A stretch of 64,000 nucleotides of DNA from Terriglobales bacterium (GCA_035573035.1 DATNAC010000087.1:2157-66156); one strand, 5' to 3'; shown: positions 35,151 through 64,000, counted from the stretch's first letter. A program made the numbers and translations. The notes: generated by a model not told the origin, from the sequence alone.

Positions 35151-35166
35151 TGGCATTTGGCGTGCT
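35151..35166 (+). promoter_or_regulatory. Candidate sigma-54 (-24/-12) promoter
   Basis: TGGCAT-TTGGC-GTGCT with GG-N10-GC spacing, 20 nt before a small ORF and 185 nt before the M23 peptidase ATG. Confidence 0.35.
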
Positions 35167-35186
35167 AGACGAATGGCGGAGGTCGG

Positions 35187-35315: not shown

Positions 35316-35350
35316 GACGCTTCTGCCCGTCCAACGTACAATCGGAAGCG

Positions 35351-46212: not shown

Positions 46213-49200
46213 ATGCGCCGTTATGGAATCGTCGTAGGTCTCAGCGCGGTGGCCGCACTCGCCGCCTGGGCCCAAACCCGTCCCACGCAGGGAGTCCGCG
46301 GGCAGGGGCGCGCCGCCGCGGCCGCCCCGCGCTCGGCGCTGAGCCGGGCCTTCTCCCCCGGCTGGATGCTGACCGACACCAACGGCGACGGCCTGGCGGA
46401 CGCCATTGACGGCCATATCGTGGTTCCGGCTACGCCCAGCGCCGCCGAAAACGCGGCCGCGGCCAACCTGGCGGCGCGCCTGGCCTACGGTTCGAGCGGG
46501 TTGACGCCGCCGCTGGTGGTGGCGGCCGCGGCGGCGCCGGCTTCGGGCCCGCATATCTATGTGGGCGCGGGGGCGGTGCCGGCCCCGCAGGCGGCGGCGC
46601 TGCGTTCCTGGACCTTCCGCTTGGCCAAGGGCGAGGGACGGGTGGCGGTCCTTGATCCGGGACATGGCGGCGACTTGGTGCTGGTCGGCGGCGATGACGC
46701 CGGCTTGACCGCGGCGGCGGAAGCCTTCTCGGCGCGCGCGCCGTTTCAGTGGAAGGTGGCCAACGGCGCCGACTCGCTGGATGCGATCAGCAGCGTGGTG
46801 AAGGACGCCGCCCCGAACTCCGGCGTCGAGCTGGTCGGTGTGGCCTATCAGGCGGGCACGCCCGGTATCAGCAAGGCCTACCTGACCGCCACCGGTGCGA
46901 TCACGGCGGCCGATCTGCAAAAAGCGTTGGCCTCCTCGCAGTTGGCCGCGGTGCATGAGCTCTTCGTGCTGGGAGGAGCGGCGGTGAGCGCCACCAATCC
47001 CAAGGCGTTTCATCCCCAGACCTTCGCCGCACCGGAGACGCCGGCCGGCGGCGACAACGGCGCTGACGATACCGCGGCGGCGGGAGCGCCCGCCCCGGCC
47101 GCGGCGGGCGGACGTGGCGCGGCGGGCGGCCGCGGCGGCGCCGGAGGGGGTGCCGCCGCCGGGGGTACCGTCAGCGGCCTCGATCTCGGGCTCCTCTATT
47201 CCAACCACGGCTTGTTCGGTTCCAGCGGACGGATTCCGGTACCGGCCACGCTGACTTCGCATCTCTACGTGCCTGCCGGCGCGGCCGGCGTGGCCATGGC
47301 CAACCTGGCGGCGCGCATGGGCATGGAGACCACCGGGATGACCTTCCCGGTCGCGAGCCCGGCCGCCAGTGCCGATCTGCACCAAATCACCGAACAGCCG
47401 GTGGTCGCCGGTGACGGCGCCCTCGCCCAGGCGGTTCAGAAAAAACTCGAGGCGAACGATACCTCCGCGGCCGCCGCCGCTCCGCCGCTAAAACCCGGCG
47501 AAGGTCAGCTTCGCATTGTGGACCGGAGCTTCGGCAGCCATGCCGCGCTGCTGGTCCGCGGCGACGATGCCGGCGCGGCCGCGGCCTTGAACCTGGCCGC
47601 CGATCATTTGCCTAGCCTCTGGGAGCCAGGCAAGCAGTACGCCGGCATTGAGGACGTCCGCTACGACCTGCACCAATTCTTCTCGTTGCACTCCGGCGTG
47701 GGCCAAGCCGCCGCGGGCATGTTCTTCCTCCAGCGCTGGCTCAAGGACCTCGGTCCCAATCCCACCAACGTCAAGGCCGAACTGTACACCGATCTCGCCG
47801 ATCCCCAGCTCTCCAGCTTCGTGGCCAAGCAGATTCAGGATCAGGTCCACGTCCAGGCCGAGGTGGATACCGCCAGCCTGCGCGCCGGCACCCAGTGCTG
47901 CGACGATAACCCCGACTTGCATTACACCAACCCCGAGTTCCCCTTCCACCAAGGCAAGCCGATTTTCACCGAAGACATCCACATTCCCTGGGAGGGTACC
48001 AAGCTGCTCGACGACGTGCGCGGCGCCGCGGCACATCTCGAAGCCGGCCAGCCGGTGAATATCGAGGCGCGGGTGAGCGAGGGTCCGGCGGAGCGCAAAA
48101 AGCTCACCGCGCAAATCGATTCGATTCTCGATCAGGCGGGCGTGCCCGCCGCCCAGCGCCAGGTGGTGGTGCTCGACGCCTACAAGCAAGGATTCAGTTG
48201 GCTGGTGGACGAGATCGAGCCCGAGCTGCAAGGCAAGGGCGTCGCCAGCCTCAGCCTCGATTTCGCCAAGGATGTGGACGAGACCGGTGTGCGCGACATG
48301 TACTCCCCGGCGCGCTGGGCGCAGGAACTCTACCCGGTGGACGAGGTCCTGGCGAAGGATCTGAACATCCCCCTGGCCAAAATCAGCCTGCACGAGATCA
48401 ACACCGCGCCTCCGGTGGCGACGCCCACCGCGATCGCCATGGCGGATCCGCCCAACGACCCGCCCAGTCCGACGTACCGGGTGCATGCCTACGATGCCGC
48501 GGGCAAGGAGATCCTCGGCCGCGACTTCACCGTTACCACGGTGATGCAGCCCTACAGCGGCGTCATCAAGGCCTACGAGAATGTCCAGGTGGACACCGGC
48601 TGGGTGAAGCTCGAGCAGGGAGGCAAGGCGGTCCTCGATGAGCGTATCCCCACCGACATCGAGACCTTCTGGGATCACTATCAGAACGTCACCCTGCCCC
48701 GCGTCTTCCGCTTCGTGATGGCGCAGTCGAAGGGCTACCTGCACACCGAGTACGCCCCGCCCTTCGACACGCTCAAGATGGACTTTCATCTGAGCGAGCC
48801 CGACTACAACCTTGGCATTGATAAGGAACGCATCTCCTCCATCGAGGCGCTGCAAGAAGACGTCTTCTACTCGACGGAAACCTTTATTGACGCGCTGGCC
48901 GACCTCGAGAGCGGCCGTGCGGAGAACTACGTCGGCCGCGTCATTCCGGTGATGCACCCCGCCGAGGACGGCAAGGACGGCCTGGTGCACGTCGAGTTCT
49001 ACGGCAAGGCGGCCGCCAACCCGGTGGTGCGCCTGAGCTGGACCGATGCTCACGGCCAGGTGCGGGAGCGCGAGCGCAACCTGCCGGTGCTCACCGGCGG
49101 CTTCCAGCCGCGCCTGATCGGCGCCCGGGTGCAGGCGGGGGCGAACGGTCTCCAGCCCGAGATCGAGAACCTGACCTGGCTGCTCCCGGCCGACTTCAAA

Positions 49201-50673
49201 AAGTACGACATGCAGGACTGGGAGAAGGTGCAGGGCCGCGAGCAGTTGGAGCGCTCGATGTTCACCGTCGAAGAGGCCGAAGGGCAATTGCACTGGCTCG
49301 ACGCCATGCATGCCGCCGGGCTCTATCCCGATGAACTGGCCTATACACATCTGCGGCACATGGCGATCGAGCTGCAGCTACCGCGCCCGCTGGGGGTGGA
49401 GTTCAGCAAGCCCGAGGAGCGGGTGCTGTTGGGTTGGAACGTCGCTCCGCCGCTGCATCCGCGGCCGATGATTACCGACATCACGCCCATGCCGATCAAC
49501 CCGGCTACGCACTCCTTCGTGCAGTGGTCGGAGCCGATCGGCCCGGCCGAGAGCGCCTCCATCCAGGCGCGCCTGTCCACCTACCCTGGCGTCACCACAT
49601 ATTGGATGGGGCGCAGCTACTTGGGCCAGAACATCTGGGTCAGCGATATCATGCTGCCCTCGCCCTCGACCCTGCGTTCCTCCGCCAAAGAGACCACGCT
49701 CAAGGCCTCCATCGTGTACTCCGCGCGCCAGCACGCCAACGAGGTCTCCAGCACCAGCCACGTCGAAAAGCTGGCCGAGATGCTGGTCACCGATCCCGCC
49801 GAGCGCGCTTACCTGAAGCAAGTCAACGTGGTCCTGCACCCGATTGACAACCCTGACGGCGCCCAGCTCTCGGTGATGGAGGCCAAAATCGAGCCGGACA
49901 ACCTGCTGCACTTGGGTTATCACGGCGCCCTCGCCGCCGACGTGTCGAGCGGTCAGGCCGACATCGATCCGGTCTATCCCGAGTCCCGCACCCGGCGGCA
50001 ATTGCTGCAGGAGTGGAACCCGGACGCCTTCCTCAACCCCCACGGTTATCCCTCGCACGAGTGGGTGCAGCCCTTCAGCGAGTACACCGCCTGGGTGCAG
50101 AGCCGCGACGGCGCCAACAACGGCCGCACTTGGTGGATTCCGCGCGGCTGGTTCACCAGCTTGAGTTTTGCCCGCGACACCACCACCAACACATATTCCG
50201 AGGCCGTAACCTTCGCGCTGCGCGACCGCATCGTGGACGCCGAACGCAAGGTGCCCGGACTGCTGCCGCTGGAGACGCGCATGAACGACCGCTACCAGCG
50301 CTGGGGACAGGCCTTCCAGCCCGACAACATGCAGCAGCCGGTGGTAAACGGCATCCGCATTTACATGTCGCTCAAAGGGACCTCCGCCACCGGCGGCGGC
50401 CAGGCCGGCCCGGGTGCGAGCTCCGCCATCACCTGGGACCAGGGCTACACCGAGGCGCCGGACGAGACCGCGCATGGCGACTACATGAAGCTGGTGGCGT
50501 CGGCGGGCTTGGCCTACGACCAGGTGCACTTGAAATACCTGGCTTTGGGTAAGCTCCGCATCACCCGCGGCGAAAAGGAAAGCGCCCAGGGTGTGACCTG
50601 GTCGGTCACGCGCGCGCGCCCCATTCTGCCGAGCTCGGAGCCGCCCGTGCCGCTGCCGCCCGATGGCAAATAG
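46213..50673 (+). CDS. Secreted 1486-aa protein with a C-terminal M14 (zinc carboxypeptidase)-like domain
   Basis: Signal peptide MRRYGIVVGLSAVAALAAWAQ. M14-like motifs QHANEVSSTSH (H-x-x-E, codons from 49732), HPIDNPDG and LNPHGYPSHEW. About 1100 N-terminal residues have no family I can recognise. Confidence 0.78.
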   Translation: MRRYGIVVGLSAVAALAAWAQTRPTQGVRGQGRAAAAAPRSALSRAFSPGWMLTDTNGDGLADAIDGHIVVPATPSAAENAAAANLAARLAYGSSGLTPPLVVAAAAAPASGPHIYVGAGAVPAPQAAALRSWTFRLAKGEGRVAVLDPGHGGDLVLVGGDDAGLTAAAEAFSARAPFQWKVANGADSLDAISSVVKDAAPNSGVELVGVAYQAGTPGISKAYLTATGAITAADLQKALASSQLAAVHELFVLGGAAVSATNPKAFHPQTFAAPETPAGGDNGADDTAAAGAPAPAAAGGRGAAGGRGGAGGGAAAGGTVSGLDLGLLYSNHGLFGSSGRIPVPATLTSHLYVPAGAAGVAMANLAARMGMETTGMTFPVASPAASADLHQITEQPVVAGDGALAQAVQKKLEANDTSAAAAAPPLKPGEGQLRIVDRSFGSHAALLVRGDDAGAAAALNLAADHLPSLWEPGKQYAGIEDVRYDLHQFFSLHSGVGQAAAGMFFLQRWLKDLGPNPTNVKAELYTDLADPQLSSFVAKQIQDQVHVQAEVDTASLRAGTQCCDDNPDLHYTNPEFPFHQGKPIFTEDIHIPWEGTKLLDDVRGAAAHLEAGQPVNIEARVSEGPAERKKLTAQIDSILDQAGVPAAQRQVVVLDAYKQGFSWLVDEIEPELQGKGVASLSLDFAKDVDETGVRDMYSPARWAQELYPVDEVLAKDLNIPLAKISLHEINTAPPVATPTAIAMADPPNDPPSPTYRVHAYDAAGKEILGRDFTVTTVMQPYSGVIKAYENVQVDTGWVKLEQGGKAVLDERIPTDIETFWDHYQNVTLPRVFRFVMAQSKGYLHTEYAPPFDTLKMDFHLSEPDYNLGIDKERISSIEALQEDVFYSTETFIDALADLESGRAENYVGRVIPVMHPAEDGKDGLVHVEFYGKAAANPVVRLSWTDAHGQVRERERNLPVLTGGFQPRLIGARVQAGANGLQPEIENLTWLLPADFKKYDMQDWEKVQGREQLERSMFTVEEAEGQLHWLDAMHAAGLYPDELAYTHLRHMAIELQLPRPLGVEFSKPEERVLLGWNVAPPLHPRPMITDITPMPINPATHSFVQWSEPIGPAESASIQARLSTYPGVTTYWMGRSYLGQNIWVSDIMLPSPSTLRSSAKETTLKASIVYSARQHANEVSSTSHVEKLAEMLVTDPAERAYLKQVNVVLHPIDNPDGAQLSVMEAKIEPDNLLHLGYHGALAADVSSGQADIDPVYPESRTRRQLLQEWNPDAFLNPHGYPSHEWVQPFSEYTAWVQSRDGANNGRTWWIPRGWFTSLSFARDTTTNTYSEAVTFALRDRIVDAERKVPGLLPLETRMNDRYQRWGQAFQPDNMQQPVVNGIRIYMSLKGTSATGGGQAGPGASSAITWDQGYTEAPDETAHGDYMKLVASAGLAYDQVHLKYLALGKLRITRGEKESAQGVTWSVTRARPILPSSEPPVPLPPDGK

Positions 50674-54180: not shown

Positions 54181-55116
54181 ATGTCGCAGCCCCAGGCCCT
54201 CTCCATCCCGGCTGACCCTCATTCGCACACCGCGCGCTACCGCTTGCAACGCGTGCTCGTTGCCACCGATTTTTCCGCGCCCGCCGAACGGGCCCTCCAA
54301 ATCGCGATTCGCTGGGCGCGCCAATACGATGCGGAGTTGATGCTGGTGTCGGTGGTCACTCCCGTCATGTCCGCCCCTCTGCCCGACGTCACCGAATCGG
54401 CCTGGGCCGCGGTTCAGGTTGAGGCCGAGTTGCTCAACTCCACCCAGAGCCGCCTTGCCGGGCTCGCCCATGACCGTCCCGAAATGCAAGGCCTGCGGCA
54501 CCGCGAGTATGCGTGCCAGGGTATGGTCGCTGGAACCATCGTGGCCGCCGCCGCCGAGCTCAAGGCTGATCTGGTCGTCGTCGGTACGAGCGCTGCCGGA
54601 CCGGTCCGCAATCTGCTGCTCGGCTCGACCGCGCAGGCCGTCATCCGCCATTGCGGCTGTCCGGTTCTGTTGGTCGGGCCCGAGGCCGAGAGCGGGCCAT
54701 CCCGCGGCAGCGTTCTCCTGGCCACCGACTTGGGCGCCGAGTCGCTGCGTCCGGCAGAATTCGCCGCCGCCATCGCCGCGGACACCAAGGCTCGCTTGAA
54801 CTTGCTGCACGTGGTGCACGATCCGGTCCCCGGCCTCGAACCCGAGATGCGCGCGGAGATCGAACGCGCGATCGAGGGCCAGTTACGCCGCCTTAGCCCC
54901 GCTGGAACCGACACGCAAACCCGTGTGGCATATGGCCACGCCGCATCCGCGATTGTGGCGGCCGCGGGCGAGTCTCGGGCCGGTTTGATCGTGATGGGAG
55001 TCAAACACGAAACTTGGTTCGGTGATCACGCGGGCCGAAGCACGCTCGCGCAGGTCGCCCAATTGGCACCGTGCCCCATATTGGCGGTACGCCATCATTC
55101 CGCTGAGACTGCGTAA
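54181..55116 (+). CDS. Universal stress protein, tandem Usp domains
   Basis: Start at the ATG at 54181. Two repeats of the pattern VLVATDFS...LVVVGTSAAGPVRNLLLGSTAQAVIRHCGCPVLLV and VLLATDLG...LIVMGVKH...STLAQVAQLAPCPILAV. Confidence 0.9.
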   Translation: MSQPQALSIPADPHSHTARYRLQRVLVATDFSAPAERALQIAIRWARQYDAELMLVSVVTPVMSAPLPDVTESAWAAVQVEAELLNSTQSRLAGLAHDRPEMQGLRHREYACQGMVAGTIVAAAAELKADLVVVGTSAAGPVRNLLLGSTAQAVIRHCGCPVLLVGPEAESGPSRGSVLLATDLGAESLRPAEFAAAIAADTKARLNLLHVVHDPVPGLEPEMRAEIERAIEGQLRRLSPAGTDTQTRVAYGHAASAIVAAAGESRAGLIVMGVKHETWFGDHAGRSTLAQVAQLAPCPILAVRHHSAETA

Positions 55117-55350
55117 TATGGTTTCGACTTCGAAGGGGCGAAACTCGCGTGTTGAGTTGCGCGCCCCGGCAAAAGCAATGCGTCAGTGTAAGGCGCACAA
55201 GAAGAGTGCCGGGCGCGTGGCCTTCCGCGCTGATCGGCGCGAAAGGCTGCGGAATATCAACGCCATCCGCGCTGGGGGCCGCGCCCATGCCTCGCGGATG
55301 CCCCGAGCGGTGCGGGCATCCGCTGCCGGTAATCGAAGCCCGGCCTCCGA

Positions 55351-55393
55351 GCGGCCAACGGGAGCGACCCAGCGCAAAAAGTGGCCGTGCCAC
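55351..55393 (+). repeat. Dispersed intergenic repeat, copy B (43 nt)
   Basis: GCGGCCAACGGGAGCGACCCAGCGCAAAAAGTGGCCGTGCCAC. See copy A at 11716-11756. Confidence 0.85.
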
Positions 55394-55401
55394 GCCGCCC
55401 G

Positions 55402-56076
55402 TCAAGGCGCAACGCTGATTCGATTATCGACCACGCTCACCCCCGGAGCCGACCAGGCCACGCCCATCGCTTGCTGCCATTCCGCCCACGAACGTACGCT
55501 GCCCCGGAGGATTACTTCGGATCCATTCACCTCGACTTTGACCCGGTGAGCATCGTGCAAGGCTCCTCGTAACAAGGCCGCTTCAATCTTGGTTTCCAAT
55601 CCGGAAGCGGCTACGGCCGGCCGGATCGTGATCCGGTTGTCCACCCCCCGGACGCCCATGAGGCGCCACACGGCATCCTCCGCCGCCCGCCTCTGGTATT
55701 GCCACTCCACTTCGCCGGTCAACGTGAGCAGTCCTTGCGCGACTGTGATCCGAATCTTCTCCCGCGGCACCGACGCGTCCCACTCCAAAGCCTGGACCGC
55801 CGCTCGCGCGATATCCGAATCACTGCGCTCGGCGAAGCTCGGCAGATGCACCTCGATCTCATTCGCGACCGCGTACACCCCGCGCACGCGCTGTACCGCC
55901 TCCTCCGCCGTCCACTTTTTCGTGAGCGAGTCGACCCGGCCGGTCAGCGTAGCCACGCCGCCGGCCACCGTCACCCCGATCTCGTTGGGCTGCAACCGCG
56001 CGTCCCAGCGCAATTCCGCCTCCACATCGCGCTGAACCATCTCATCAGCTTTGATCACCGAAAGTACTCTGGCCAT
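55402..56076 (-). CDS. BON-domain protein (three BON repeats, OsmY-like)
   Basis: Start moved to the ATG at 56076 with a GGGGGA RBS. Three units of the type V.V.V..G.VTLTG.V...........A......GV..V.N.I.V. Confidence 0.88.
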   Translation of the reverse strand: MARVLSVIKADEMVQRDVEAELRWDARLQPNEIGVTVAGGVATLTGRVDSLTKKWTAEEAVQRVRGVYAVANEIEVHLPSFAERSDSDIARAAVQALEWDASVPREKIRITVAQGLLTLTGEVEWQYQRRAAEDAVWRLMGVRGVDNRITIRPAVAASGLETKIEAALLRGALHDAHRVKVEVNGSEVILRGSVRSWAEWQQAMGVAWSAPGVSVVDNRISVAP

Positions 56077-56176
56077 GGTTCCCCCTTGGGCGTTTGCATC
56101 CTGCTTGCGATACCGAGGCTGCCGGAATCGCCCGACCGGCGCCTCGGTACGGGCCCTTGCCCGCGTCCCCGCGCCT

Positions 56177-56680
56177 CTAGGCGGCGAGAGCCTGAATTCC
56201 ATGCTTCTCCGGAGCCGCTTTCGCGGCTTCGATATGGAGCCGGCCGTGATCGAGGCTCGCCGCCGTTTTGTCAATGTTGATCGCCTGCGGCAGGTCCACG
56301 CGCCGGTAGACCTCGTCGGCCCCGAACTCGGACCAGAGGACGCGCCGGCCCTGAAACTTCGATTCCTTTTTGCTTTTGGCGTGCACGATGAGCCCGGCGG
56401 GTGTCGCCGAGACCTCTACCTCGTTTGCGGTGAATCCGGGCAACGCCAAATCGAGATGGTAGCCACCGTCGTCCTCCGACAGTTCGCCAGCCGACCACCC
56501 CAACGTTTCCCGCTCGGCTTTGAGCCAGTTCTCCAGAGCATGCCCGTCGGCGCACCGCTGCCCGTCGAAGATTTCGAAGGCCCGGCGCTGGATCGCCTGG
56601 AAGCGCTTTTCGATCTCCGCCAATGCCGGAATCGGATTGTGTTGCATGTCTTGGCTTTTTTCAACTGCGACCGCTGCCAT
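56177..56680 (-). CDS. Hsp20/alpha-crystallin small heat-shock protein with DUF2934-like N-terminal segment
   Basis: Start at the ATG at 56680 (GGGGGAGG RBS). N-terminus QRRAFEIFDGQRCADGHALENWLKAERE. ACD region GYHLDLALPGFTANEVEV...RRVDLPQAINIDKTAASLDHGRLHIEA. Confidence 0.9.
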   Translation of the reverse strand: MAAVAVEKSQDMQHNPIPALAEIEKRFQAIQRRAFEIFDGQRCADGHALENWLKAERETLGWSAGELSEDDGGYHLDLALPGFTANEVEVSATPAGLIVHAKSKKESKFQGRRVLWSEFGADEVYRRVDLPQAINIDKTAASLDHGRLHIEAAKAAPEKHGIQALAA

Positions 56681-56707
56681 AAAGTATTCCTCCCCCGCAT
56701 ATACCAC

Positions 56708-56723
56708 AGCAAGCCGGATGCCA
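56708..56723 (-). promoter_or_regulatory. Candidate sigma-54 (-24/-12) promoter (best match in the window)
   Basis: The minus strand reads TGGCAT-CCGGC-TTGCT, 27 nt before the Hsp20 ATG at 56680, inside a 54-nt spacer. Confidence 0.6.
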
Positions 56724-56734
56724 CATGCGCACCG

Positions 56735-57610
56735 TTACCCCCGCAGCGTCAGTACCGGGCAGGGCGCATCGCACACGATCCTGTGGGTGAGCGTCGACAG
56801 ATGATCGGTCATTCCGGCGGAGCCCCGGGCCCCCATGACGATCAGGTCCGCTTTGAGTTCTCCGGCGGCGGTGAGGATGCAATCAGCCGGTGGTCCCACG
56901 TCAAGGCGGATCTCCGGAGGGGTCCAGAAGCAGACGCCGCCGGGCTTGAGCGCCCCCAGCCTCCGCTCCGCGGCTTCATAGCGCGAAGTGTCCCCGGCAT
57001 GCTGCGGTGGTATCGCGTGCATCAAGGTCAATTGCGCGCGATACTCCTGCGCCAGCCGGCCGGCATACTCGGCGACCCGCTCCGATGCGTCTCCCAAGCC
57101 GCAGGCGGCGAGGATGCTGTAAAACTCGCTGCCGTGGCGAGTGTGCCAGGCATTCGGACCGACCGTCAGCACCGGGCAGGGCAGCGACCGCAGGATGTTT
57201 TCCGAGGTGGATCCCAGGATGAGGCGGCCGACGCCGTTACGTCCACTGGCTCCCACCACCGCCAGATCGATTTTCTCCTCGGCTACGAACTCCGGTAACA
57301 CCAGTTCCGGCCGGCCCTGCAGCAAATGCGCCTGATGGGCGAGACCGGCCAGCAAGGCGGAGTGGTCAACCGCGTCGAGCTGCTCCTGGCCCACCCGCAG
57401 CATCCAGCATAGGGTCGGGGAACTGACGTCGGGCGTGGCGTCATAGGGCCGCATCCAGACCACATGCGCGAGATGCAGTCGAGCGTTGTGCTTGCCCGCC
57501 AACTCCGCGGCGAAACGAACGGCGGCGTTGGCCGCCGGCGAAAAGTCTGTTGTCACCAGTATCTCTTTGAGCCCGAGCGCGGCCGCCGGGGATGCCATCG
57601 CGTTTGACAT
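56735..57610 (-). CDS. Universal stress protein, tandem Usp domains
   Basis: Start set to the ATG at 57610, which has a GGAGG 5 nt upstream (the track uses GTG at 57622). ILVTTDFSPAANAAV..., LAVVGASGRNGVGRLILGSTSENILRSLPCPVLTV, and a second domain ending MGARGSAGMTDHLSTLTHRIVCDAPCPVLTL. Confidence 0.9.
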   Translation of the reverse strand: MSNAMASPAAALGLKEILVTTDFSPAANAAVRFAAELAGKHNARLHLAHVVWMRPYDATPDVSSPTLCWMLRVGQEQLDAVDHSALLAGLAHQAHLLQGRPELVLPEFVAEEKIDLAVVGASGRNGVGRLILGSTSENILRSLPCPVLTVGPNAWHTRHGSEFYSILAACGLGDASERVAEYAGRLAQEYRAQLTLMHAIPPQHAGDTSRYEAAERRLGALKPGGVCFWTPPEIRLDVGPPADCILTAAGELKADLIVMGARGSAGMTDHLSTLTHRIVCDAPCPVLTLRG

Positions 57611-57634
57611 AACAGCCTCCACAAATGGAGGTGG

Positions 57635-57650
57635 TGCAACCGGCCCGCCA
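57635..57650 (-). promoter_or_regulatory. Candidate sigma-54 (-24/-12) promoter
   Basis: The minus strand reads TGGCGG-GCCGG-TTGCA with GG-N10-GC spacing, 24 nt before the ATG at 57610. Confidence 0.5.
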
Positions 57651-57804
57651 TATCGCGCGATCCGCCTCGTACTGATTCCATGGCGGATACCGCCAGCGCG
57701 CGATCCGCCGTGGTACTCCTGGTTCGAGCGATGCGGCCTGGCTTGGAGGCCCCTGCCCCGACTCGGGTGAAATGCCCCATGTCAGCCATTTGTGAGAACC
57801 GCGG

Positions 57805-57932
57805 GCTCGAAGTGGTCTCATAATGCCGCAGCAGGCCGCCTGGGGCGAGCTGGATGCGGCTTTTTCTGGGGAAAAAGCCGCACACGATCCATTCGCGTAG
57901 AGTTTGGCACCAATTATGAGACCACTTCTAGC
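57805..57932. repeat. Nested inverted-repeat element (20-bp arms, 88-nt interior) including a gene stop codon
   Basis: Arms GCTCGAAGTGGTCTCATAAT (57805-57824) and ATTATGAGACCACTTCTAGC (57913-57932): 16 bp perfect, 19/20 overall. Inner perfect 10-bp hairpin GCGGCTTTTT-CTGGGG-AAAAAGCCGC (57856-57881). The right arm contains the TAG stop (57928-57930) of the acyl-CoA synthetase gene. Confidence 0.75.
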
Positions 57933-60084
57933 GCTGCACCCGAATGCGGGCGTCGACAATCGCGGCTCCGGCAGGATGTACCACGATAGGGTTGCAGTCG
58001 AGTTCGACGATCTCCGGCATCTGGCTGGCCAACCAGCTCAGGTTCACCAACGCCTCGACTAGCGCGGAGATATTGCACGGCGCCGTACCCCGGTAGCCGC
58101 TGAGCAGAGGCGCGCATCGCAGCCGCCGGATCATCGCCTCGGCCTCCCGCGCGTCGAGAGGCGCGAGCCCCACGGCGATATCGTGAATCAATTCCACCAT
58201 GAAACCGCCTAAACCACAGGCGACGACCGGCCCGAAGATGGGGTCGCGGATCACGCCGAGGATCATCTCCACGCCCGGCGGCGCCATTTCCTGAACCAGC
58301 CAACCGGCTGGCTCGAGTCCGCCCCGCTCCAGTGTCGCTTGCATGGCGGCGGCCGCCTTCTGTACCGTCTCGGTGCCCAGCAGGCCGAGCCGTACCGCCC
58401 CAATATCGCTCTTGTGTTGTATGCCCGGCAGGATCGCTTTGAGCGCGGCAGGCGCCGATTCCGAGAATACCGTGAGGCTCTCATCAACCCCGAATGCGCG
58501 CTGCCGCACGAAAGGCAAACCGTAGCCGCTGAGGAGTTCGGCCGTGTCGTGCCCGCTTAGCCAACCGCCGGCGTCGGGGCGGGCCCCCGCCAGCGCCTGC
58601 TGGGCGCGTGCCCGCCGGCTTTCTTCGGGAGCCACGAGTTGGGGCGGCGGCAGTTCGCGCCAAGCGGCATAGCGCGCCGCGTGACCGAGCGCGCGCGCGG
58701 CCATCTCGGGAAACGAATAAGAGGGCAGCGCCCCGGTAGCGGTGCGGAGTTCCGGCAGCGGACCCGGCTTCGACATGAGGACGGTGAGCAGCGGCAGGCC
58801 CCCGTCAAGCGTTTGCGCCCCCGATCGGATGGCCGCGGCCGCGTCCGCCGGAGATGTCACCATGGGCGGAACGAAAATCGCGATCAGTGCGTCGACCTCC
58901 CCGCTGTTGCCCGCGATCTCGATGGCGCGGGTGAAGTGTCCGGCAGGAGCCGAGGCCACCAAATCCACGGGATTGGCTCGGCTCGCATCCGCCAGCAGAC
59001 AAGTGGCCAATTGGGCCTGGGTGGATGCCGAGAAAACCGGCACCGTCAATCCCTCCGCTTCGCACGCGTCCGCGCAAAGAATGCCCGGCCCGCCGGCATT
59101 GGTGACAATGCCCACCCGGCGCCCCGCCGGCAAGGGTTGATGAGCCAGCAGCGCCGCCGCACCGAACATCTCCTCCAGGGTATCCGTCCGCACCACGCCG
59201 GCTCGCTCGAACAAGGCGGCTACGGTCGAATCGTTGGCGGCCAGCAGCGCACCGGTGTGAGAGCCGCAAGCGCGCGCGCCGGCGCGCGTACGCCCGCTCT
59301 TGATGGCAAGAATGGGCTTCCGGCGCGATACCTGGCGCGCGATCGAGGCAAACCGCTGAGAATTCCCAAAAGATTCCAGGTACAGAAGCACGACCCCTAC
59401 GGCGGGGTCGTCCCTCCATAACTCGAGCAGGTCGTTGCTGGAGATATCGGCGTTGTTTCCGATCGAAGCGAAGCGCGCCAGCCCAAGCCCGAACTCCTGG
59501 GCCTGCTCCAGCACGGCCAGCCCCAGCGCTCCGCTCTGCGAGATGAAGCCGATGTTTCCAGGTATGGGCGCGTGCGGCGCGAAGGTGGCGTTCAGCTTCA
59601 CCCGCTCGTCGGTATTGATAAGTCCGAGACAGTTGGGCCCGATCAGGGGCACGCCCGCGACGCGGCAGAGATCGCGGAGCGAATCCTGCCGGCTGCTTCC
59701 GGCGGCGCCGCATTCGGCAAAGCCGGCCGAAATCACCACCAGGGCCCGCACCCCTTGGGCGATGCAGGCGCCCGCCACTTCCAACACCGACGCCGCGGGA
59801 GTGGCGATGATGGCCAGGTCCACTATCGCCGGGACGGCGGTGATGTCAGGATACGCTTGCACACTGTGGACGACAGGAGAGCGGGCATTCACCGGGTACA
59901 CAACGCCCTGGAAATCGCCCGCAAGCAGGTTGAGGAAAATCGCGCCTCCGACGTGATCCGCCCGGCGCGATGCTCCGATCACCGCAATGGACCGCGGAGT
60001 GAACAGCGCATCCAGTGCACCGAGCAGAGCGGGCAGCCCGCTGTGGAAAACGGCTTCTTGCCGGGGCGGAAGAATTGACGGCAT
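57928..60084 (-). CDS. ADP-forming acetyl-CoA (acyl-CoA) synthetase, fused alpha/beta type
   Basis: Start moved to the ATG at 60084. LFTPRSIAVIGASRRADHVGGAIFLNLL...GVVYPVNARSPVVHSVQAY...DLAIIATPA...ALVVISAGFAE (CoA-binding/ligase-CoA domains) plus a C-terminal ATP-grasp. Confidence 0.87.
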   Translation of the reverse strand: MPSILPPRQEAVFHSGLPALLGALDALFTPRSIAVIGASRRADHVGGAIFLNLLAGDFQGVVYPVNARSPVVHSVQAYPDITAVPAIVDLAIIATPAASVLEVAGACIAQGVRALVVISAGFAECGAAGSSRQDSLRDLCRVAGVPLIGPNCLGLINTDERVKLNATFAPHAPIPGNIGFISQSGALGLAVLEQAQEFGLGLARFASIGNNADISSNDLLELWRDDPAVGVVLLYLESFGNSQRFASIARQVSRRKPILAIKSGRTRAGARACGSHTGALLAANDSTVAALFERAGVVRTDTLEEMFGAAALLAHQPLPAGRRVGIVTNAGGPGILCADACEAEGLTVPVFSASTQAQLATCLLADASRANPVDLVASAPAGHFTRAIEIAGNSGEVDALIAIFVPPMVTSPADAAAAIRSGAQTLDGGLPLLTVLMSKPGPLPELRTATGALPSYSFPEMAARALGHAARYAAWRELPPPQLVAPEESRRARAQQALAGARPDAGGWLSGHDTAELLSGYGLPFVRQRAFGVDESLTVFSESAPAALKAILPGIQHKSDIGAVRLGLLGTETVQKAAAAMQATLERGGLEPAGWLVQEMAPPGVEMILGVIRDPIFGPVVACGLGGFMVELIHDIAVGLAPLDAREAEAMIRRLRCAPLLSGYRGTAPCNISALVEALVNLSWLASQMPEIVELDCNPIVVHPAGAAIVDARIRVQR

Positions 60085-60086
60085 GG

Positions 60087-60704
60087 TCACCGGCTCCTGA
60101 CGGGCGGCTGCGCTCGCGAGCCGGCAACGACGCCCGGCCGCAAAAGGTACCATCCCATTACGACCGACATCAATCCCATGCCGACCGGAAACAGCACGTA
60201 CTGCTCCCTGCGCACAAAGCTCTGCACAATCAAAAGCGTCAGGGCGGCGGCGATGGCAAGCTCGCCGGCGATCCGCGCCGACCATTCGCCGGTGACAATG
60301 CCGAGCGCGACGTAGACCAATACCACGGTAAAAACCGCGCCCAGAGTAAATCCGGACAATAAGGCGGCGTTCAGGCCGGCATGGAACAGATCCTTGGCCG
60401 CCACCAGGCCCAGCCAAAAACCGCCCGTTGCCCAGGGCAAACTGAACACCAGCAGCGCGGTCGCCAGGGATCCGCGAAACCAGGTCGGATGGATCTCCGG
60501 CCAACGCAACCGGGCTCCCAGCAACATCGCCAGAATCGGCCCAACCGGGAGAAAGGCGCCGATGCACCACAGCCAGCCGTTTTCGTAAGGTACAGCGTTG
60601 GCGGCCACGCCCGCGGCTGCGCCCAATACCAGAAACACCGACAAGCGGCCGGCAACGGCGGCCAGCGATCGCGGAGTTAAGGCGGATAGGGGTTCAGCGG
60701 GCAT
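60087..60704 (-). CDS. Integral membrane protein, unknown function (about 6 TM)
   Basis: Start set to the ATG at 60704 (MPAEPLS...). Strongly hydrophobic, no family recognised. The stop lies 2 nt before the synthetase ATG, and the start overlaps the upstream Hsp20 stop by 11 nt. Confidence 0.6.
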   Translation of the reverse strand: MPAEPLSALTPRSLAAVAGRLSVFLVLGAAAGVAANAVPYENGWLWCIGAFLPVGPILAMLLGARLRWPEIHPTWFRGSLATALLVFSLPWATGGFWLGLVAAKDLFHAGLNAALLSGFTLGAVFTVVLVYVALGIVTGEWSARIAGELAIAAALTLLIVQSFVRREQYVLFPVGMGLMSVVMGWYLLRPGVVAGSRAQPPVRSR

Positions 60705-61182
60705 GGCGGGTGCCCTTCTTGCCTTGCCGGCCCTCCGGCGCAGGTAATACACGAATGTCCAATACGCCGCGGTTCAGATGAGCTTTGACTTCACCCGTCT
60801 CACGGTCGCAGGGCAGGGGGATGCGCCTACAAATAACGCGCCCGCCGAATTCATCCAAAAAGATGCGGCCGCGGCCGTCGCGTTCGTGGCAGGTGCCGTA
60901 GAGCACGGCGCAGTCCGTTCCCACGTCCAGTTCAAGATCGCGGAGCCCGAATCCGGGCACCTCGGCCCGCAGCAGGAGGGTGCCGTCGTCGTTTTCCATC
61001 AGCTGTGTCGGGACCGGCCGCGTCAACTCGCGCTCAGCCTCCAACCAGTGCTCCAGGGCGCGGCCGGGAATGGACCCCTCCGCTTCATACAATTCGTATG
61101 CGCGGCGTTCCAACCGGCTCTGGAACTGCTCGACGCGGGCCTGCGCACGTTCCTCGCTTTTGGTGATCAATATTCCGGGCAT
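60694..61182 (-). CDS. Hsp20/alpha-crystallin small heat-shock protein with DUF2934-like N-terminal segment
   Basis: Start moved to the ATG at 61182 (GAAGGAAG RBS). N-terminus LERRAYELYEAEGSIPGRALEHWLEAEREL. ACD region LLLRAEVPGFGLRDLELDV...RRIPLPCDRETGEVKAHLNRGVLDIRV. Confidence 0.85.
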   Translation of the reverse strand: MPGILITKSEERAQARVEQFQSRLERRAYELYEAEGSIPGRALEHWLEAERELTRPVPTQLMENDDGTLLLRAEVPGFGLRDLELDVGTDCAVLYGTCHERDGRGRIFLDEFGGRVICRRIPLPCDRETGEVKAHLNRGVLDIRVLPAPEGRQGKKGTRHAR

Positions 61183-61366: not shown

Positions 61367-62197
61367 TCACATCAGCGCCGCCACGCCGAGCATGATCTCC
61401 TCGATTTCCTCGGTCGTGGCTTCCTGTACGGCGGCGTTCAAGCGAAAGCCCACCTGCTCCACGCGGCGGTCGACTTCGCGCACGGCCCCCTCGAGATGCC
61501 GGGCGCGCTGCCGGTTTTCGGCCATCACCGAGGTCAGGTAGATGGCGCTCATCAGTCCCGCAAGGTATTCGTCTGCCAGTTCCAGGAGGAACGTGTCCGG
61601 CCGCTCATGCAACCGTGGCGGGTAGGGATAGAGACGGGGTTCGCGGCGTTGCAAGCGCGAGAAGGGCCGCACCACGCGGGTGGTCAAGCCGCTTTCGGTG
61701 TCGTCGTTATAAATCACGGTGAAATCCGCGGGCATGGCGCCTTGGTCGCGCAGCAGCGGATAGAGTCTCTTCAGCACGCCGGTCATTTCATTTGAGCGCG
61801 CGGGCATCGGGATGGTCAAGGCAACCCGCGGGTCGCTGCCGTACCGCAGCGCCATGCGCGTGCCCGCCAGCGCGATTCGGATGGCCCGGCGATCGCCGGC
61901 GCACCGGGCAAGGAGAGCTGCCCAAAGGCTCTGGTTGAAGGCGCCACAAAAGCCACGCTCGGATCCCATCAGGAAAAAGACCTGGGGAGCGCCCAAATCG
62001 CATCGCGGTGCGCGGCCGTAGTGGCCGAGATAGTCGCTCACCGCCCGTTCCAGTACATGCATGCTTGCCTGCTGTGCCTCCGCCGCCGGCCGCAGTTTCA
62101 GCGCCTCGGCAAGCGACAGATTCTTCATCGCCGCCAGGACCTCGCGCACTTGTGTCAACGCATGCTGGCGGGCGCGCAACTCCGACCGCCGTCCCAT
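61367..62197 (-). CDS. atpG: F-type ATPase gamma subunit (alternate/N-type-like)
   Basis: The ATG at 62197 overlaps the alpha stop (ATGA). LTQVREVLAAMKNLSLAE, GSERGFCGAFN and the C-terminal TTEEIEEIMLGVAAL match gamma signatures. Divergent overall. Confidence 0.85.
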   Translation of the reverse strand: MGRRSELRARQHALTQVREVLAAMKNLSLAEALKLRPAAEAQQASMHVLERAVSDYLGHYGRAPRCDLGAPQVFFLMGSERGFCGAFNQSLWAALLARCAGDRRAIRIALAGTRMALRYGSDPRVALTIPMPARSNEMTGVLKRLYPLLRDQGAMPADFTVIYNDDTESGLTTRVVRPFSRLQRREPRLYPYPPRLHERPDTFLLELADEYLAGLMSAIYLTSVMAENRQRARHLEGAVREVDRRVEQVGFRLNAAVQEATTEEIEEIMLGVAALM

Positions 62198-63696
62198 CAG
62201 GATGCCGCCTCCGCCGCCGGCGGGCGTCGTTCCTCCCATCGCTGTGTCAATGCGGTCATAGCCGCCGCCCACCGCGAGCGGCCGGATCCGAGCTGTAAGT
62301 CCAGAGCCGGCACTTCCGCGGTCAAGAAGTGCAAATAATCGGCCATGTCAGCGGGTTGCCGCGAATCGAGCCGGTGCTCGTTGAAAGCGACCAACCAGGC
62401 CAGGTGCAGTTCGGGCGCCTGGGGCATGCGCGGAGCCTGTTTCAAAATTTCGCGCAGCAGCCGGCCGCGGTGAATTTGCAGCGCAATTGAGGCTTCGAGT
62501 TTGGCCCCAAAACGGGTGAACACCTCCAATTCCAGAAAACGCAGGTAGTCGAGCTTCATGCGCCCCGCTTCAGTGCGGATGGCCGGCGGCTGGGCCGCGC
62601 CGCCGATGCGGGATACCGAGCGCGTCACATCGATCGCGGGCAGGATGCCCGCGGAGAACAGCGGGGCGGCAAAGTAAACTTGCCCGTCGGTGATCGAAAT
62701 CAGATTGGTGGGGATATAGGTGGCCAGCTCGCCCTCGTGCGTTTCCGCCAGGGCCAGCGCGGTCATCGTCCCGCCCCCACGCGCCCGCGAGAGGCTCGCG
62801 GCGCGCTCCAGCAGGCGGGCATGGAGATAAAAGATATCTGCCGGAAAGGCCTCGCGGCCCGGCGGCCGCCGCAGCAGCAGCGACAGTTCGCGGTAGCAGT
62901 CGGCATGGGTGGTGAGATCGTCGTAGACGACCAGGGTGTCTTGACCGCGGCGCATCCAGTATTCCGCGACGGCGGCGCCCGCGAACGGCGCCAGGTACTG
63001 CAACCCCGGCAGCGAGGCCGCATCGGCGGCCACCAGGCAGGTGTAGTCCAGGGCGCCGCCGCGGCGTAGCGCTTCCAGCACGCCGGCCACGCTCGCGCGC
63101 CGTTGTCCGATCGCGACGTAAACGCAACGCACGCCTTGGTCGCGCTGGCGCAACACCACGTCGAGGGCGAGCGTGGTCTTGCCCAGGCCGTTATCGCCGA
63201 TGAAGAGCTGCCGCTGGCCGCGCCCGATCGGAATCATGGTGTCGACGATCCGGTTGCCGGTGAACAGGGGCCGGCTCACAAAATCGCGATCGACGATGGG
63301 GGGTGAAAGAATGTCGAGCGGCCCGCGTTCCACACAGTCCGGCGCCTCGCGCTCGTCCAGCGCCCCGCCCAGCGGGTCCAGAACGCGCCCGAGTACGGCT
63401 TCGCCCACCGGCAGGGTGAGTTGCCACCCGGCCGATCGTACCTGCATGCCGGTAGCCAGACCCCCGCTGGAGCGCAACAGAATCCCTCCCAGCGAATCCT
63501 CCGCCAATTGGCAAACCAGTGCCTGGCTGCCGTCCTCAAACTCGAGCACGTCATCGATGGCCGCCGAGGGCAGTCCGGCAACCCAAACAATGCCGTCGCC
63601 GACGGCGGTGACGCGCCCGGACTCGGCAACGCGCAGGCCAGGCGTATAGGTTGCCAGCCAGGCGCGCTGCTGCTCGAGCGGTGCCCAGCGCGCCAT
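62197..63696 (-). CDS. atpA: F-type ATPase alpha subunit (alternate/N-type-like)
   Basis: REAFPADIFYLHARLLERAA and IPTNLISITDGQVYF are alpha signatures. The P-loop reads GDNGLGKT instead of the usual GDRQTGKT. Confidence 0.9.
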   Translation of the reverse strand: MARWAPLEQQRAWLATYTPGLRVAESGRVTAVGDGIVWVAGLPSAAIDDVLEFEDGSQALVCQLAEDSLGGILLRSSGGLATGMQVRSAGWQLTLPVGEAVLGRVLDPLGGALDEREAPDCVERGPLDILSPPIVDRDFVSRPLFTGNRIVDTMIPIGRGQRQLFIGDNGLGKTTLALDVVLRQRDQGVRCVYVAIGQRRASVAGVLEALRRGGALDYTCLVAADAASLPGLQYLAPFAGAAVAEYWMRRGQDTLVVYDDLTTHADCYRELSLLLRRPPGREAFPADIFYLHARLLERAASLSRARGGGTMTALALAETHEGELATYIPTNLISITDGQVYFAAPLFSAGILPAIDVTRSVSRIGGAAQPPAIRTEAGRMKLDYLRFLELEVFTRFGAKLEASIALQIHRGRLLREILKQAPRMPQAPELHLAWLVAFNEHRLDSRQPADMADYLHFLTAEVPALDLQLGSGRSRWAAAMTALTQRWEERRPPAAEAAS

Positions 63697-63697
63697 C

Positions 63698-64000
63698 TTA
63701 CGCGCTCCCCTCTCCCGCCTGACAGAAAGCCGCGAGTTCGTCCGCCAGATTGGCGCTCAGCGTATGCGATCCCGCCTGGATTCGCACTCCGGCGAGCAAC
63801 GTCGCATCCACCGTGCAGTGCAAGGCGGCGGGAGCGGCGCCAAGGCTGGCCAGACCGCCGCTCAGAGCCGCCTCCTGGGCGCCATGCAGCGGATAGGCGC
63901 TGGCCAACTCCACCACGGTCGCGGGCGCATGGCGCAGGGCGTCGCCCTGTGGCGGCGGCAACCGCGCCAAGTCCTCAAGCAGCATGCCGATCAGCCGGTC
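63698..64000 (-). CDS. F-type ATPase delta (OSCP)-like C-terminus, possibly a b/delta fusion (5' part outside the window)
   Basis: The reading frame stays open to the window edge. The C-terminus VVELASAYPLHGAQEAALSGGLASLG...VDATLLAGVRIQAGSHTLSANLADELAAF resembles the OSCP C-terminal pattern (vD.sLiGG..i..g....D.S....L). Confidence 0.55.
   Translation of the reverse strand, partial: DRLIGMLLEDLARLPPPQGDALRHAPATVVELASAYPLHGAQEAALSGGLASLGAAPAALHCTVDATLLAGVRIQAGSHTLSANLADELAAFCQAGEGSA

Follow-up and report, generated by a model that had tools for sequence, protein, structure and literature searches.

We show that the atp locus at the end of a 64,000-nucleotide stretch of Terriglobales bacterium DNA (the window) encodes a real F-type rotary ATPase, probably an accessory one, of an atpR-less "N-ATPase-like" lineage, which is not new. 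The operon is a member of the atpR-less group of the Methylacidiphilum and Nitrospiraceae type already noted in the literature: its gene order lacks atpR, its c subunit has no E32 and carries Leu in place of Thr, and its alpha and beta subunits fall in the same clade as those of the group. The best overall explanation of its role, and one that we consider likely, is an accessory H+-coupled ATPase without AtpR, set in a stress island, that would spend ATP to hold the proton-motive force.

An eight-gene operon that runs beyond the window

Only the final two and a half operon genes fall within the window. A metagenome contig (L001) that matches the window at 100% identity across 11,804 nt and extends past its end carries the full operon, eight intact genes in the order atpD-atpC-atpQ-atpB-atpE-atpF (a b-delta fusion)-atpA-atpG, with beta and epsilon (atpD-atpC) at the head and atpF-atpA-atpG at the tail. 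The 3' part of atpF, atpA, atpG, and then a DUF2934-Hsp20 gene all lie on the minus strand of the window. An earlier reading of the window from its sequence only (the sequence-only reading) had proposed the tail of an ATPase operon with delta-like, alpha, and gamma genes and no beta or epsilon gene downstream. Pfam and NCBIfam profiles matched all three genes, E-values (down to 1e-194) exclude chance matches, and no beta or epsilon gene lies downstream of atpG in the 64-kb window. A search of the window plus its 9.7-kb extension found no further atp genes, and no canonical atp operon was found elsewhere within the 64-kb window. The reading had predicted atpD, atpC, atpQ, atpR, atpB, and atpE upstream, and all of these were found there except atpR. 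The upstream order is not atpIBEFH, which the reading had named, along with the lack of a second atp operon, as the mark of a split housekeeping operon, and such a split is ruled out because beta and epsilon lie upstream in the same operon. Comparison of the contig with the E. coli and actinobacterial loci showed that it does not have the canonical atp(I)BEFHAGDC order with a separate atpH.

The b-delta fusion, alpha, and gamma subunits

The C-terminal 100 codons of atpF (positions 63698 to 64000, minus strand) matched Pfam OSCP with 30.8 bits (gathering threshold, 22.3) over profile positions 103 to 167 of 172. The entire gene, which occupies positions 9259 to 9999 of the contig and runs beyond the window end, encodes 246 aa, with PF00430 at residues 7 to 137 and OSCP (PF00213) at residues 174 to 237. 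The full protein aligned end to end with TIGR03321 (alt_F1F0_F0_B; 1 to 237 versus 1 to 240 of 246), with 94.5 bits against a cut-off of 224.7. AtpF is a long N-type b subunit with a delta/OSCP C-terminal domain and without the delta N-terminal domain, and the OSCP-like ORF upstream of alpha that had been taken for a b/delta stalk protein is the C-terminal part of this fusion. Gene calls and profile searches on the contig found no separate delta gene (atpH) in the operon.

The alpha gene, atpA (62197 to 63696, minus strand), encodes 499 aa identical to NCBI HXE31096.1 from a Terriglobales bacterium MAG and matched PF00006 with 230 bits and NF009884 with 647 bits (cut-off, 554). The comparison of alternate and canonical models that the sequence-only reading had proposed favored the alternate one for alpha, with 520 bits for TIGR03324 (cut-off, 750.5) versus 491 bits for TIGR00962 (cut-off, 484). 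The alpha Walker A motif is GDNGLGKT, versus the canonical GDRQTGKT, and the Arg finger (SVSRIGG) is intact. This atypical P-loop, which the reading had pointed out, is a clade-wide property: no member keeps GDRQTGKT, the clade pattern is GD[ENSD]G[LT]G[KR][ST], and 29 of the 59 members have Arg for the Lys. The closest solved structures to this alpha are ordinary F1 alphas.

The start codon of atpG (61367 to 62197, minus strand; gamma, 276 aa) overlaps the atpA stop codon (ATGA). The gamma subunit is as divergent as had been supposed, since its full-length match to PF00231 reached 73 bits, whereas TIGR01146 and TIGR03323 tied at just ∼26 bits.

The remaining subunits and the absence of atpR

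The beta subunit has a normal catalytic P-loop (GGAGVGKT), the short a subunit retains its essential Arg, and epsilon is full length (133 aa). AtpQ, which is present in place of AtpI (PF03899), matched PF09527 with 37.8 bits (gathering threshold, 26.6) and TIGR02230 with 38.7 bits, below the 46.7 cut-off. The atpQ and atpB genes overlap by 4 nt, so there is no room for atpR between them, and neither the Pfam AtpR profile nor phmmer searches with five AtpR references gave a match. The distance from the atpQ stop to the atpB stop is 650 to 840 nt in nearly all related loci versus 950 to 2,400 nt in the comparison set of five N-ATPase operons with AtpR. Four loci with a longer atpQ-atpB spacer (L053, L059, L047, and L044) were examined for a hidden AtpR; their spacers contained only a frameshift or spurious ORFs without hydrophobic character.

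Where the c subunit of Ilyobacter tartaricus has Q32, that of the operon carries Met; its helix 2 reads ESLxxY, and it has a single carboxylate. Aligning it to the Spirulina c15 ring, whose structure is solved, gave the same picture. The same Met and ESLxxY were present in 54 of the 54 family loci with a readable c subunit, among them those of Methylacidiphilaceae and Nitrospira, whereas classical N-ATPases have E or Q and EST/ETMxxY. Helix 1 of the family reads V/L-x-A-x-A/G-M-G/A, with bulkier residues where the glycine packing motif stood. From the replacement of the helix-1 Glu/Gln by Met and of ESTxxY by ESLxxY, we infer that the ATPase is coupled to H+ and not to Na+. AtpR would be dispensable in such an enzyme, as the c subunit lacks the second buried Glu that would partner AtpR's arginines.

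Relationship to the N-ATPases

In the definition of Dibrova, Galperin, and Mulkidjanian (2010), N-ATPases have the order atpDCQRBEFAG, with atpR (urf2, PF12966) between atpQ and atpB as the "tell-tale sign"; both helices of the c subunit carry a Glu, with ES(T)xxY as the Na+ ligand set, and the enzyme is always a second copy alongside a canonical F- or A-type ATPase (PMC2881411). The Terriglobales operon has atpD-atpC first, atpF-atpA-atpG last, an AtpQ, and a long b with a delta-like end, and it has neither atpR nor a two-Glu c subunit with ES(T)xxY. Of the earlier assignment to the N type, the gene order and the b/delta-type stalk protein stand, and strict N-ATPase membership does not, as atpR is missing and the c subunit lacks a second Glu and the ESTxxY Thr.

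The TIGR "alternate F1F0" models (TIGR03305, 03166, 03306, 03322, 03321, 03324, and 03323) gave scores below their curated cut-offs for every subunit (bits/cut-off: alpha, 520/750.5; beta, 553/752; epsilon, 51.5/100; a, 173/302; c, 85.5/131; b, 94.5/225; gamma, 26/282), and they also outscored the canonical models for a, c, b, and epsilon. The alphas of AtpR-containing proteobacterial N-ATPases likewise failed TIGR03324 (594 to 601 bits), so the cut-offs delimit a narrower set of enzymes. Seven of the eight subunits scored higher against classical N-ATPase than against canonical subunits (for a, 163 versus 67 bits; for c, 82 versus 39 bits), and matches to AtpQ were found in N-type operons only.

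Exactly the same architecture was present in 56 loci from at least eight phyla, as well as in plasmid copies in Legionella and Sulfuricella. In neighbor-joining trees, the family was monophyletic with bootstrap support of 99% (alpha) and 86% (beta), and the backbone joining the family, the classical N type, and the canonical enzymes had short internal branches and no clear order. The canonical sample in the alpha/beta paralogue-rooted tree was mostly Actinobacteria plus E. coli. A beta deletion seemingly common to the family and the N type proved in an indel comparison to be an actinobacterial insertion. The Terriglobales alpha is 51 to 63% identical to those of related loci and 77% identical to its closest protein-database match (P0002). 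Loci of Methylacidiphilaceae and Nitrospira (L005, L020, L022, L030, and L050) are among the best matches (59 to 63%), and identity to classical N-ATPase is only ∼49%. The family cuts across phyla at ∼60% identity, a pattern typical of lateral transfer. In Methylacidiphilum, the operon "atpDCQBEF:HAG," which lacks atpR and ESTxxY, was described in 2019 as a second one beside a standard F-ATPase (PMC6688271), and the same variant was described in the Nitrospiraceae in 2025 (PMC12342949).

A stress island adjoins the operon

The DUF2934-Hsp20 gene (60694 to 61182, minus strand; 162 aa; PF11154, 43.7 bits; PF00011, 29.5 bits) begins exactly 184 nt after the atpG stop, the spacing that the sequence-only reading had given, and it also follows atpG in the closest relatives (L090 and L091). 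Neither a terminator-like site nor a sigma70 promoter was found in this gap. Its stop is overlapped by a gene for a 205-aa hydrophobic protein (60087 to 60704, minus strand) with no Pfam or NCBIfam match, which is kept only in the same two relatives, where a 207-aa counterpart has the same place. An ADP-forming acetyl-CoA synthetase (acetate--CoA ligase; 57928 to 60084, minus strand; 718 aa; TIGR02717, 462 bits) follows, with alpha and beta domains fused (Pfam CoA_binding, Succ_CoA_lig, and ATP-grasp_5). This enzyme adjoins family operons in L008, L017, L022, and L090 too, and it or acetate kinase adjoins 7 of the 59 family loci.

Beyond it lie a tandem-domain universal stress protein (USP) gene (56735 to 57610, minus strand; PF00582), with a sigma54-type site, TGGC-N7-TTGC, directly upstream at 57636 to 57650, and a second Hsp20 gene (56177 to 56680, minus strand; PF00011), with the best sigma54-type site, TGGCATCCGGCTTGC, directly upstream at 56709 to 56723. 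A BON-domain (OsmY-like) protein gene (55402 to 56076, minus strand; PF04972; NF007858 OsmY, 64.8 bits, below the cut-off) comes next, and a second USP gene on the opposite strand (54181 to 55116, plus strand; PF00582), a paralogue of the other, forms the edge of the island. The island also contains GlgX (a glycogen debranching enzyme; 732 bits), an alcohol dehydrogenase, and a sigma54 activator of the response-regulator type.

The island is kept in the closest relatives (alpha, 77% identical), and this context is specific to the lineage. Across the 59 loci, there was no family-wide conserved neighborhood and the flanks varied. Signaling proteins and RND pumps recurred most often, together with sigma54 activators and with acetate kinase or acetyl-CoA synthetase, each at only 3 to 6 loci. 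As a family feature, a sigma54 promoter ahead of atpD was not supported (3 of 45 loci, about the chance level). Such a promoter, and sigma54 control of the island, may still apply to this Terriglobales lineage.

The role of the enzyme

The presence of GlgX, alcohol dehydrogenase, acetyl-CoA synthetase, USPs, Hsp20s, and the BON-domain protein in the island suggests an accessory role under oxygen or energy limitation. The operon would probably be expressed under these conditions as part of the stress and fermentation island; ATP from substrate-level phosphorylation would be spent to uphold the proton-motive force and cytoplasmic pH, and routine ATP synthesis would be left to a canonical F-ATPase. 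For the atpR-less group, we infer the ion specificity and the working direction from sequence and gene neighbors. Since the flanking genes vary across the family, the stress and fermentation role may be lineage specific. There are precedents in N-type enzymes: the classical N-ATPase of Nitrospira marina goes up at low O2 along with USPs (PMC8115632), and the N-ATPase of Burkholderia pseudomallei is H+ coupled, with a proposed pump role (PMC5376962).

The same enzyme could instead be adapted to a low proton-motive force, such as in hypoxia, and serve chiefly for ATP synthesis, a reading that we regard as unlikely. The degenerate, non-catalytic P-loop of alpha, with Lys changed to Arg in about half of the members, could favor ATP synthesis over sustained hydrolysis and so counts against a pump role. 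In F1 mutants without nucleotide binding at the non-catalytic sites, MgADP inhibition sets in during hydrolysis, and the loss of this binding hurts sustained hydrolysis more than synthesis. The full-length epsilon also fits a synthase, as do the bulkier residues at the c helix-1 glycine motif, since a large c ring, predicted here, would favor synthesis at low proton-motive force. In B. pseudomallei, the motif AxGxAxAxG goes with a c17 ring and a ratio of 5.7 H+ per ATP (PMC5376962). However, the ring size in Terriglobales is itself a prediction, the linkage to substrate-level phosphorylation and glycogen breakdown fits ATP use better, and published proposals for N-type enzymes favor pumping (PMC2881411, PMC5376962).

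It is much less probable that the operon is a rearranged housekeeping one, which would encode the sole ATP synthase of the organism rather than an additional enzyme. The 64-kb window has no other atp genes, alpha scores above the generic TIGR00962 cut-off (491 versus 484 bits), and the housekeeping locus of Bacteroides fragilis is also beta-epsilon first and without atpR (PMC4154653). However, the family is carried on Legionella and Sulfuricella plasmids, Methylacidiphilum has its second operon beside a standard F-ATPase (PMC6688271), the distribution across phyla at ∼60% identity is typical of lateral transfer, and the setting in this genome is a stress island and not a housekeeping context. 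We reject as highly improbable a classical Na+-translocating N-ATPase as in Dibrova et al., which the gene order, the PF09527 AtpQ, and the lack of a delta gene beside a long b with a delta-like end would fit, on the absence of atpR and the c-subunit ligands (no helix-1 Glu/Gln and no Thr of ESTxxY), with every TIGR alternate model below its cut-off and the alphas in a clade apart from AtpR-containing operons.

An accessory, proton-pumping ATPase is the reading that we prefer. A bolder extension of it, which we offer as speculative and rather doubtful, is that the atpR-less clade would be a third F-type class, H+ coupled and AtpR independent, with nucleotide-free alpha non-catalytic sites, which here would belong to a sigma54-controlled glycogen, fermentation, and stress module that energizes the membrane in hypoxic dormancy.

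Soil Acidobacteria are abundant and slow growing, and their survival of starvation and anoxia is poorly understood. If the proposed role is true, an accessory proton ATPase would be a concrete, testable way to energize the membrane without respiration, with glycogen mobilization, acetate-forming ATP production, and stress proteins as partners. The atpR-less branch is widespread (at least eight phyla and Legionella plasmids) yet little studied, and databases label its enzymes simply "F0F1 ATP synthase." The Terriglobales operon itself is a confirmatory, unsurprising addition to a known variant.

Comparison with known systems

All core subunits are homologous to those of E. coli atpIBEFHAGDC, and the catalytic residues of canonical F1Fo are kept (beta GGAGVGKT, the alpha Arg finger, the a Arg, and the c Glu). 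The operon differs from the canonical one in gene order, in having no separate delta, in having AtpQ for AtpI, in its divergent gamma, and in its altered non-catalytic P-loop.

With the classical N-ATPases, examples of which are found on Acaryochloris pREB4 and in Picosynechococcus and Burkholderia (PMC2881411), the operon shares the beta-epsilon-first and alpha-gamma-last order, AtpQ, a short a, a b of ∼250 aa with a delta-like C terminus, the lack of atpH, lateral mobility and plasmid occurrence, and NF009884 as the best alpha model. Unlike them, it has no AtpR, one c carboxylate instead of two, and an incomplete Na+ ligand set, and the alpha Walker A motif of the classical enzymes is GDR[QA]TGKT, in contrast to the pattern of the atpR-less clade. 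The N-type enzyme of B. pseudomallei is alike in its H+ coupling (predicted for the Terriglobales operon), in larger residues for the c helix-1 glycine motif, and in being accessory to a canonical F-ATPase (probable for the Terriglobales operon). However, it has AtpR, a two-carboxylate site (Glu30 and Glu61), and ETMxxY, none of which are present here, and its c17 ring and H+ specificity were measured, whereas ours are predicted.

The closest systems are those of Methylacidiphilum (PMC6688271) and the Nitrospiraceae (PMC12342949), with the same gene order without atpR, a fused b-delta, an AtpQ of PF09527, and the same c subunit, with no Glu at 32 and with Leu for the Thr in ESTxxY. In contrast to these, the host here is a soil acidobacterium (Terriglobales), identity is only 77% to the nearest relative and ∼60% to the others, and the context of GlgX, alcohol dehydrogenase, acetyl-CoA synthetase, USPs, Hsp20s, BON-domain protein, and sigma54 activator is peculiar to the Terriglobales lineage.

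A complete rotary ATPase operon extends past the end of the window

Profile searches of the minus strand of the window identified genes for an ATPase alpha subunit (atpA, 499 amino acids [aa], positions 62197 to 63696), a gamma subunit (atpG, 276 aa, down to 61367, with its ATG overlapping the stop codon of alpha), and a b/delta-like open reading frame (ORF) that is cut by the window end (63698 to 64000). These matches confirmed the ATPase tail (delta-like, alpha, gamma) that a sequence-only reading had placed at 61367 to 64000. The alpha subunit matched PF00006 (230 bits), NF009884 (647 bits, cutoff of 554), TIGR03324 ("alternate alpha," 520 bits, cutoff of 750.5), and TIGR00962 (491 bits), and the identical protein at NCBI is HXE31096.1 from a Terriglobales MAG. 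Against PF00231, the gamma subunit gave a full-length match of 73 bits, but both TIGR gamma models gave it only ∼26 bits, which shows that it is indeed as divergent as had been supposed. The b/delta-like ORF aligned to the C-terminal part of the Pfam OSCP profile (positions 103 to 167 of 172; 30.8 bits versus a gathering score of 22.3). A DUF2934-HSP20 gene begins exactly 184 nt past the gamma stop, the spacing previously noted for an Hsp20 gene, and there are no further atp genes in the other 61 kb of the window, in agreement with the claim that beta and epsilon are missing downstream. Elsewhere in the window, ORFs of 784 aa (33187 to 35541, minus strand) and 580 aa (26526 to 28268, plus strand) have no Pfam match, and the sole domain of a 1486-aa ORF (46213 to 50673, plus strand) is a short M14 peptidase at residues 1117 to 1220; in such GC-rich DNA, each may be a genuine uncharacterized protein or simply an over-long ORF.

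The same alpha protein, without a single difference, is encoded on an ENA metagenome contig (L001). L001 overlaps the window by 11,804 nt with complete identity and reaches 9.7 kb past the window end. The operon order on L001 is atpD-atpC-atpQ-atpB-atpE-atpF-atpA-atpG, with most genes overlapping or nearly abutting, and the products are beta (470 aa), epsilon (133 aa), a PF09527 protein (AtpQ, 112 aa), a (228 aa), c (88 aa), b (246 aa), alpha (499 aa), and gamma (276 aa). The b subunit contains an ATP-synt_B region (residues 7 to 137) and an OSCP C-terminal domain (residues 174 to 237) and aligned end to end with TIGR03321, the model for N-type b subunits. The ORF upstream of alpha, earlier taken for a b/delta-type stalk protein, is thus the C-terminal end of a fused b-delta subunit; delta has no gene of its own in the operon. 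The beta motifs GGAGVGKT and GER, the alpha Arg finger (SVSRIGG), the a-subunit Arg (in LAIRLFGN), and the c-subunit Glu are present. These results show that the residues for catalysis and rotation are all there and that the rotary ATPase gene set is complete and intact.

The enzyme belongs to an atpR-less, probably proton-type branch

Dibrova et al. defined N-ATPases by the order atpDCQRBEFAG, AtpQ, the lack of delta with a long b subunit, a c subunit with Glu in both helices and ES(T)xxY, presence as a second copy, and separate clustering in trees (PMC2881411). Of these, the operon shows the gene order, AtpQ, and the fused b-delta subunit. The N-type order proposed from the tail held for the beta-epsilon head, AtpQ, and the F-A-G end seen on L001 and failed for atpR; nothing resembling AtpR is encoded in the locus, where atpQ runs 4 nt into atpB. 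Inspection of the c-subunit ion-binding residues showed Met at the position that is Gln in Na+-binding rings and Glu in N-ATPases, ESLxxY in place of ESTxxY, and a single-carboxylate site. The Met was located with what we take to be the Ilyobacter tartaricus c sequence, used solely as a position marker, and the same assignment follows from an alignment to the Spirulina c15 ring structure. Given the missing AtpR and the c-subunit ligand changes, we reject a classical Na+ N-ATPase.

The suggested comparison with alternate F1F0 models was divided: alpha scored higher on TIGR03324 than on TIGR00962, but none of the seven TIGR models reached its cutoff. The TIGR03324 cutoff is likewise missed by the alphas of proteobacterial N-ATPases that contain AtpR, and NF009884 is their best match, as it is for the Terriglobales alpha. 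In pairwise comparisons, seven of eight subunits scored higher against classical N-ATPases than against canonical enzymes, with the widest margins for a, c, and AtpQ. The enzyme belongs to an atpR-less, predicted proton-type branch of N-ATPase-like enzymes rather than to the classical Na+ N-ATPases, and with this refinement the earlier reading, which had picked out a real feature, was essentially correct.

By the rule that Na+ specificity does not survive the loss of even one Na+ ligand (PMC2881411), we infer from the missing ligands that the enzyme is proton coupled. Dibrova et al. proposed that buried arginines of AtpR pair with the two-Glu c subunit (PMC2881411). AtpR and the helix-1 Glu are jointly missing family-wide, which fits this pairing idea, and AtpR would be dispensable in this branch, with no helix-1 Glu to pair with its arginines. 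In c helix 1, bulkier residues take the place of the glycine packing motif, a hint, from comparison with the c17 ring of B. pseudomallei (PMC5376962), that the ring may be large.

The atpR-less operons form a coherent and widespread family

One genome per species was scanned with an alignment of alpha homologues, which yielded 56 loci with alpha 51 to 63% identical to the Terriglobales alpha. The hosts are Verrucomicrobiota (Methylacidimicrobium and Methylacidiphilaceae), Gamma- and Betaproteobacteria (Legionella, Vibrio, methanotrophs, Nitrosomonas, Gallionella, Sulfuricella, and Massilia), Nitrospirota, Geobacter, Desulfuromusa, Chloroflexota, Terriglobia, and Eremiobacterota. An ORF and phmmer survey found the order beta-epsilon-Q-a-c-b (∼249 aa)-alpha-gamma to be common to all 56 loci. 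In an Eremiobacterota MAG (L049), beta and epsilon lie divergently, on the opposite strand upstream of Q-a-c-b-alpha-gamma, and in L059 the a and c reading frames are merged by an ambiguous base or frameshift. The distance from the atpQ stop to the atpB stop is 650 to 840 nt in nearly all family loci versus 950 to 2400 nt in five AtpR-containing operons, and no hydrophobic ORF lies within the few longer atpQ-atpB spacers. In 54 of 54 loci, the c subunit carries the M/ESLxxY motif. A paralogue-rooted neighbor-joining tree recovered the clade as monophyletic (99% for alpha and 86% for beta) and did not settle its place relative to classical N-ATPases and canonical enzymes.

Plasmid-borne copies occur on Sulfuricella denitrificans pSCD (L002) and on conjugative Legionella plasmids, and this carriage in L002 and in Legionella fallonii plasmid II (L003) is direct evidence for lateral mobility. 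The operon on pSCD (86.6 kb) adjoins sulfur-transport-related genes; that on the MOBF/MPF_F conjugative plasmid II is directly upstream of a TolC/periplasmic adaptor/CzcA heavy-metal RND efflux set.

The alpha Walker A motif, GDNGLGKT (window 63166 to 63189), had been called atypical and reads exactly so. Classical N-ATPases and canonical enzymes retain GDR[QA]TGKT, whereas GDRQTGKT is kept in none of 59 family alphas (L002 to L060 and L072), making the atypical P-loop a clade signature. The Walker Lys is replaced by Arg in 29 of the 59 (GDEGLGRS type). This degeneration, which is not mentioned in the two papers describing the variant (PMC6688271 and PMC12342949), suggests that nucleotide binding at the noncatalytic sites may be altered or lost.

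The operon lies in an island of probable fermentation and stress genes kept in close relatives

Upstream of the operon (L001 1 to 5891) are genes for a PAS histidine kinase, a response-regulator sigma54 activator, a Zn-dependent alcohol dehydrogenase, and GlgX (TIGR02100, 732 bits). Downstream (window 54181 to 61182) are genes for the DUF2934-Hsp20 protein, a 205-aa membrane protein, an ADP-forming acetyl-CoA synthetase, a USP, a second Hsp20, a BON/OsmY-like protein, and another USP. The gene for the 205-aa multipass protein (60087 to 60704, minus strand) overlaps the Hsp20 gene stop, and its product matches no Pfam or NCBIfam family; a 207-aa counterpart holds the same position in the closest relatives (L090 and L091) and is absent from other family loci. 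The island is kept in both relatives (alpha 77% identical), which also carry GAPDH, GntR, and GH57 genes, and it looks like a glycogen-fermentation and stress-survival module.

Sigma54-type TGGC-N7-TTGC sites lie upstream of the starts of atpD (L001 6099 to 6113, plus strand), usp (window 57636 to 57650, minus strand), and hsp20 (window 56709 to 56723, minus strand). These putative −24/−12 elements are 26 to 50 nt 5′ of the start codons, all correctly oriented, with the sigma54 activator gene encoded nearby, and the closest relative has a similar element, TGGTTTCAGGCTTGCAT, upstream of atpD. The count in L001 is just modestly above chance (5 versus 1.9 expected), and the site is not family-wide, being a minor, lineage-specific feature.

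An acetyl-CoA synthetase or acetate kinase gene adjoins 7 of 59 family loci; acetate kinase adjoins three atpR-less operons (L009, L050, and L057), and ADP-forming acetyl-CoA synthetase adjoins four others. On Sphingobium amiense plasmid pSAMIE_3 (L088), a classical N-ATPase adjoins pta-ack (acetate kinase and phosphate acetyltransferase). N-type ATPases are thus recurrently linked to acetate-forming substrate-level phosphorylation. In Nitrospira marina, a classical N-ATPase rises at low O2 along with USPs (PMC8115632). From gene context, the simplest interpretation is an accessory enzyme produced when oxygen or energy is limiting, which would turn ATP from glycogen fermentation into proton-motive force and pH homeostasis. 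A less likely alternative is an ATP synthase adapted to low proton-motive force, to which the degenerate noncatalytic site lends some support.

Comparison with known systems

The atpR-less variant is already known, in passing. Methylacidiphilum kamchatkense has a second, N-ATPase-like operon, "atpDCQBEF:HAG," without atpR and ESTxxY (PMC6688271); a 2025 Nitrospirales comparison described Nitrospiraceae N-type operons without E32 and atpR and with Thr changed to Leu (PMC12342949); and Koumandou and Kossida listed Nitrosococcus halophilus N-ATPase loci without atpR (PMC4154653). We found no biochemical study of the subgroup in the searchable literature, and in RefSeq its subunits are annotated simply as those of an F0F1 ATP synthase. 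Useful but unsurprising additions to these accounts are the family-wide survey, the degenerate noncatalytic P-loop, and the conserved island of stress and fermentation genes. The Terriglobales operon is a new acidobacterial member of an already noted kind, and its novelty is low.
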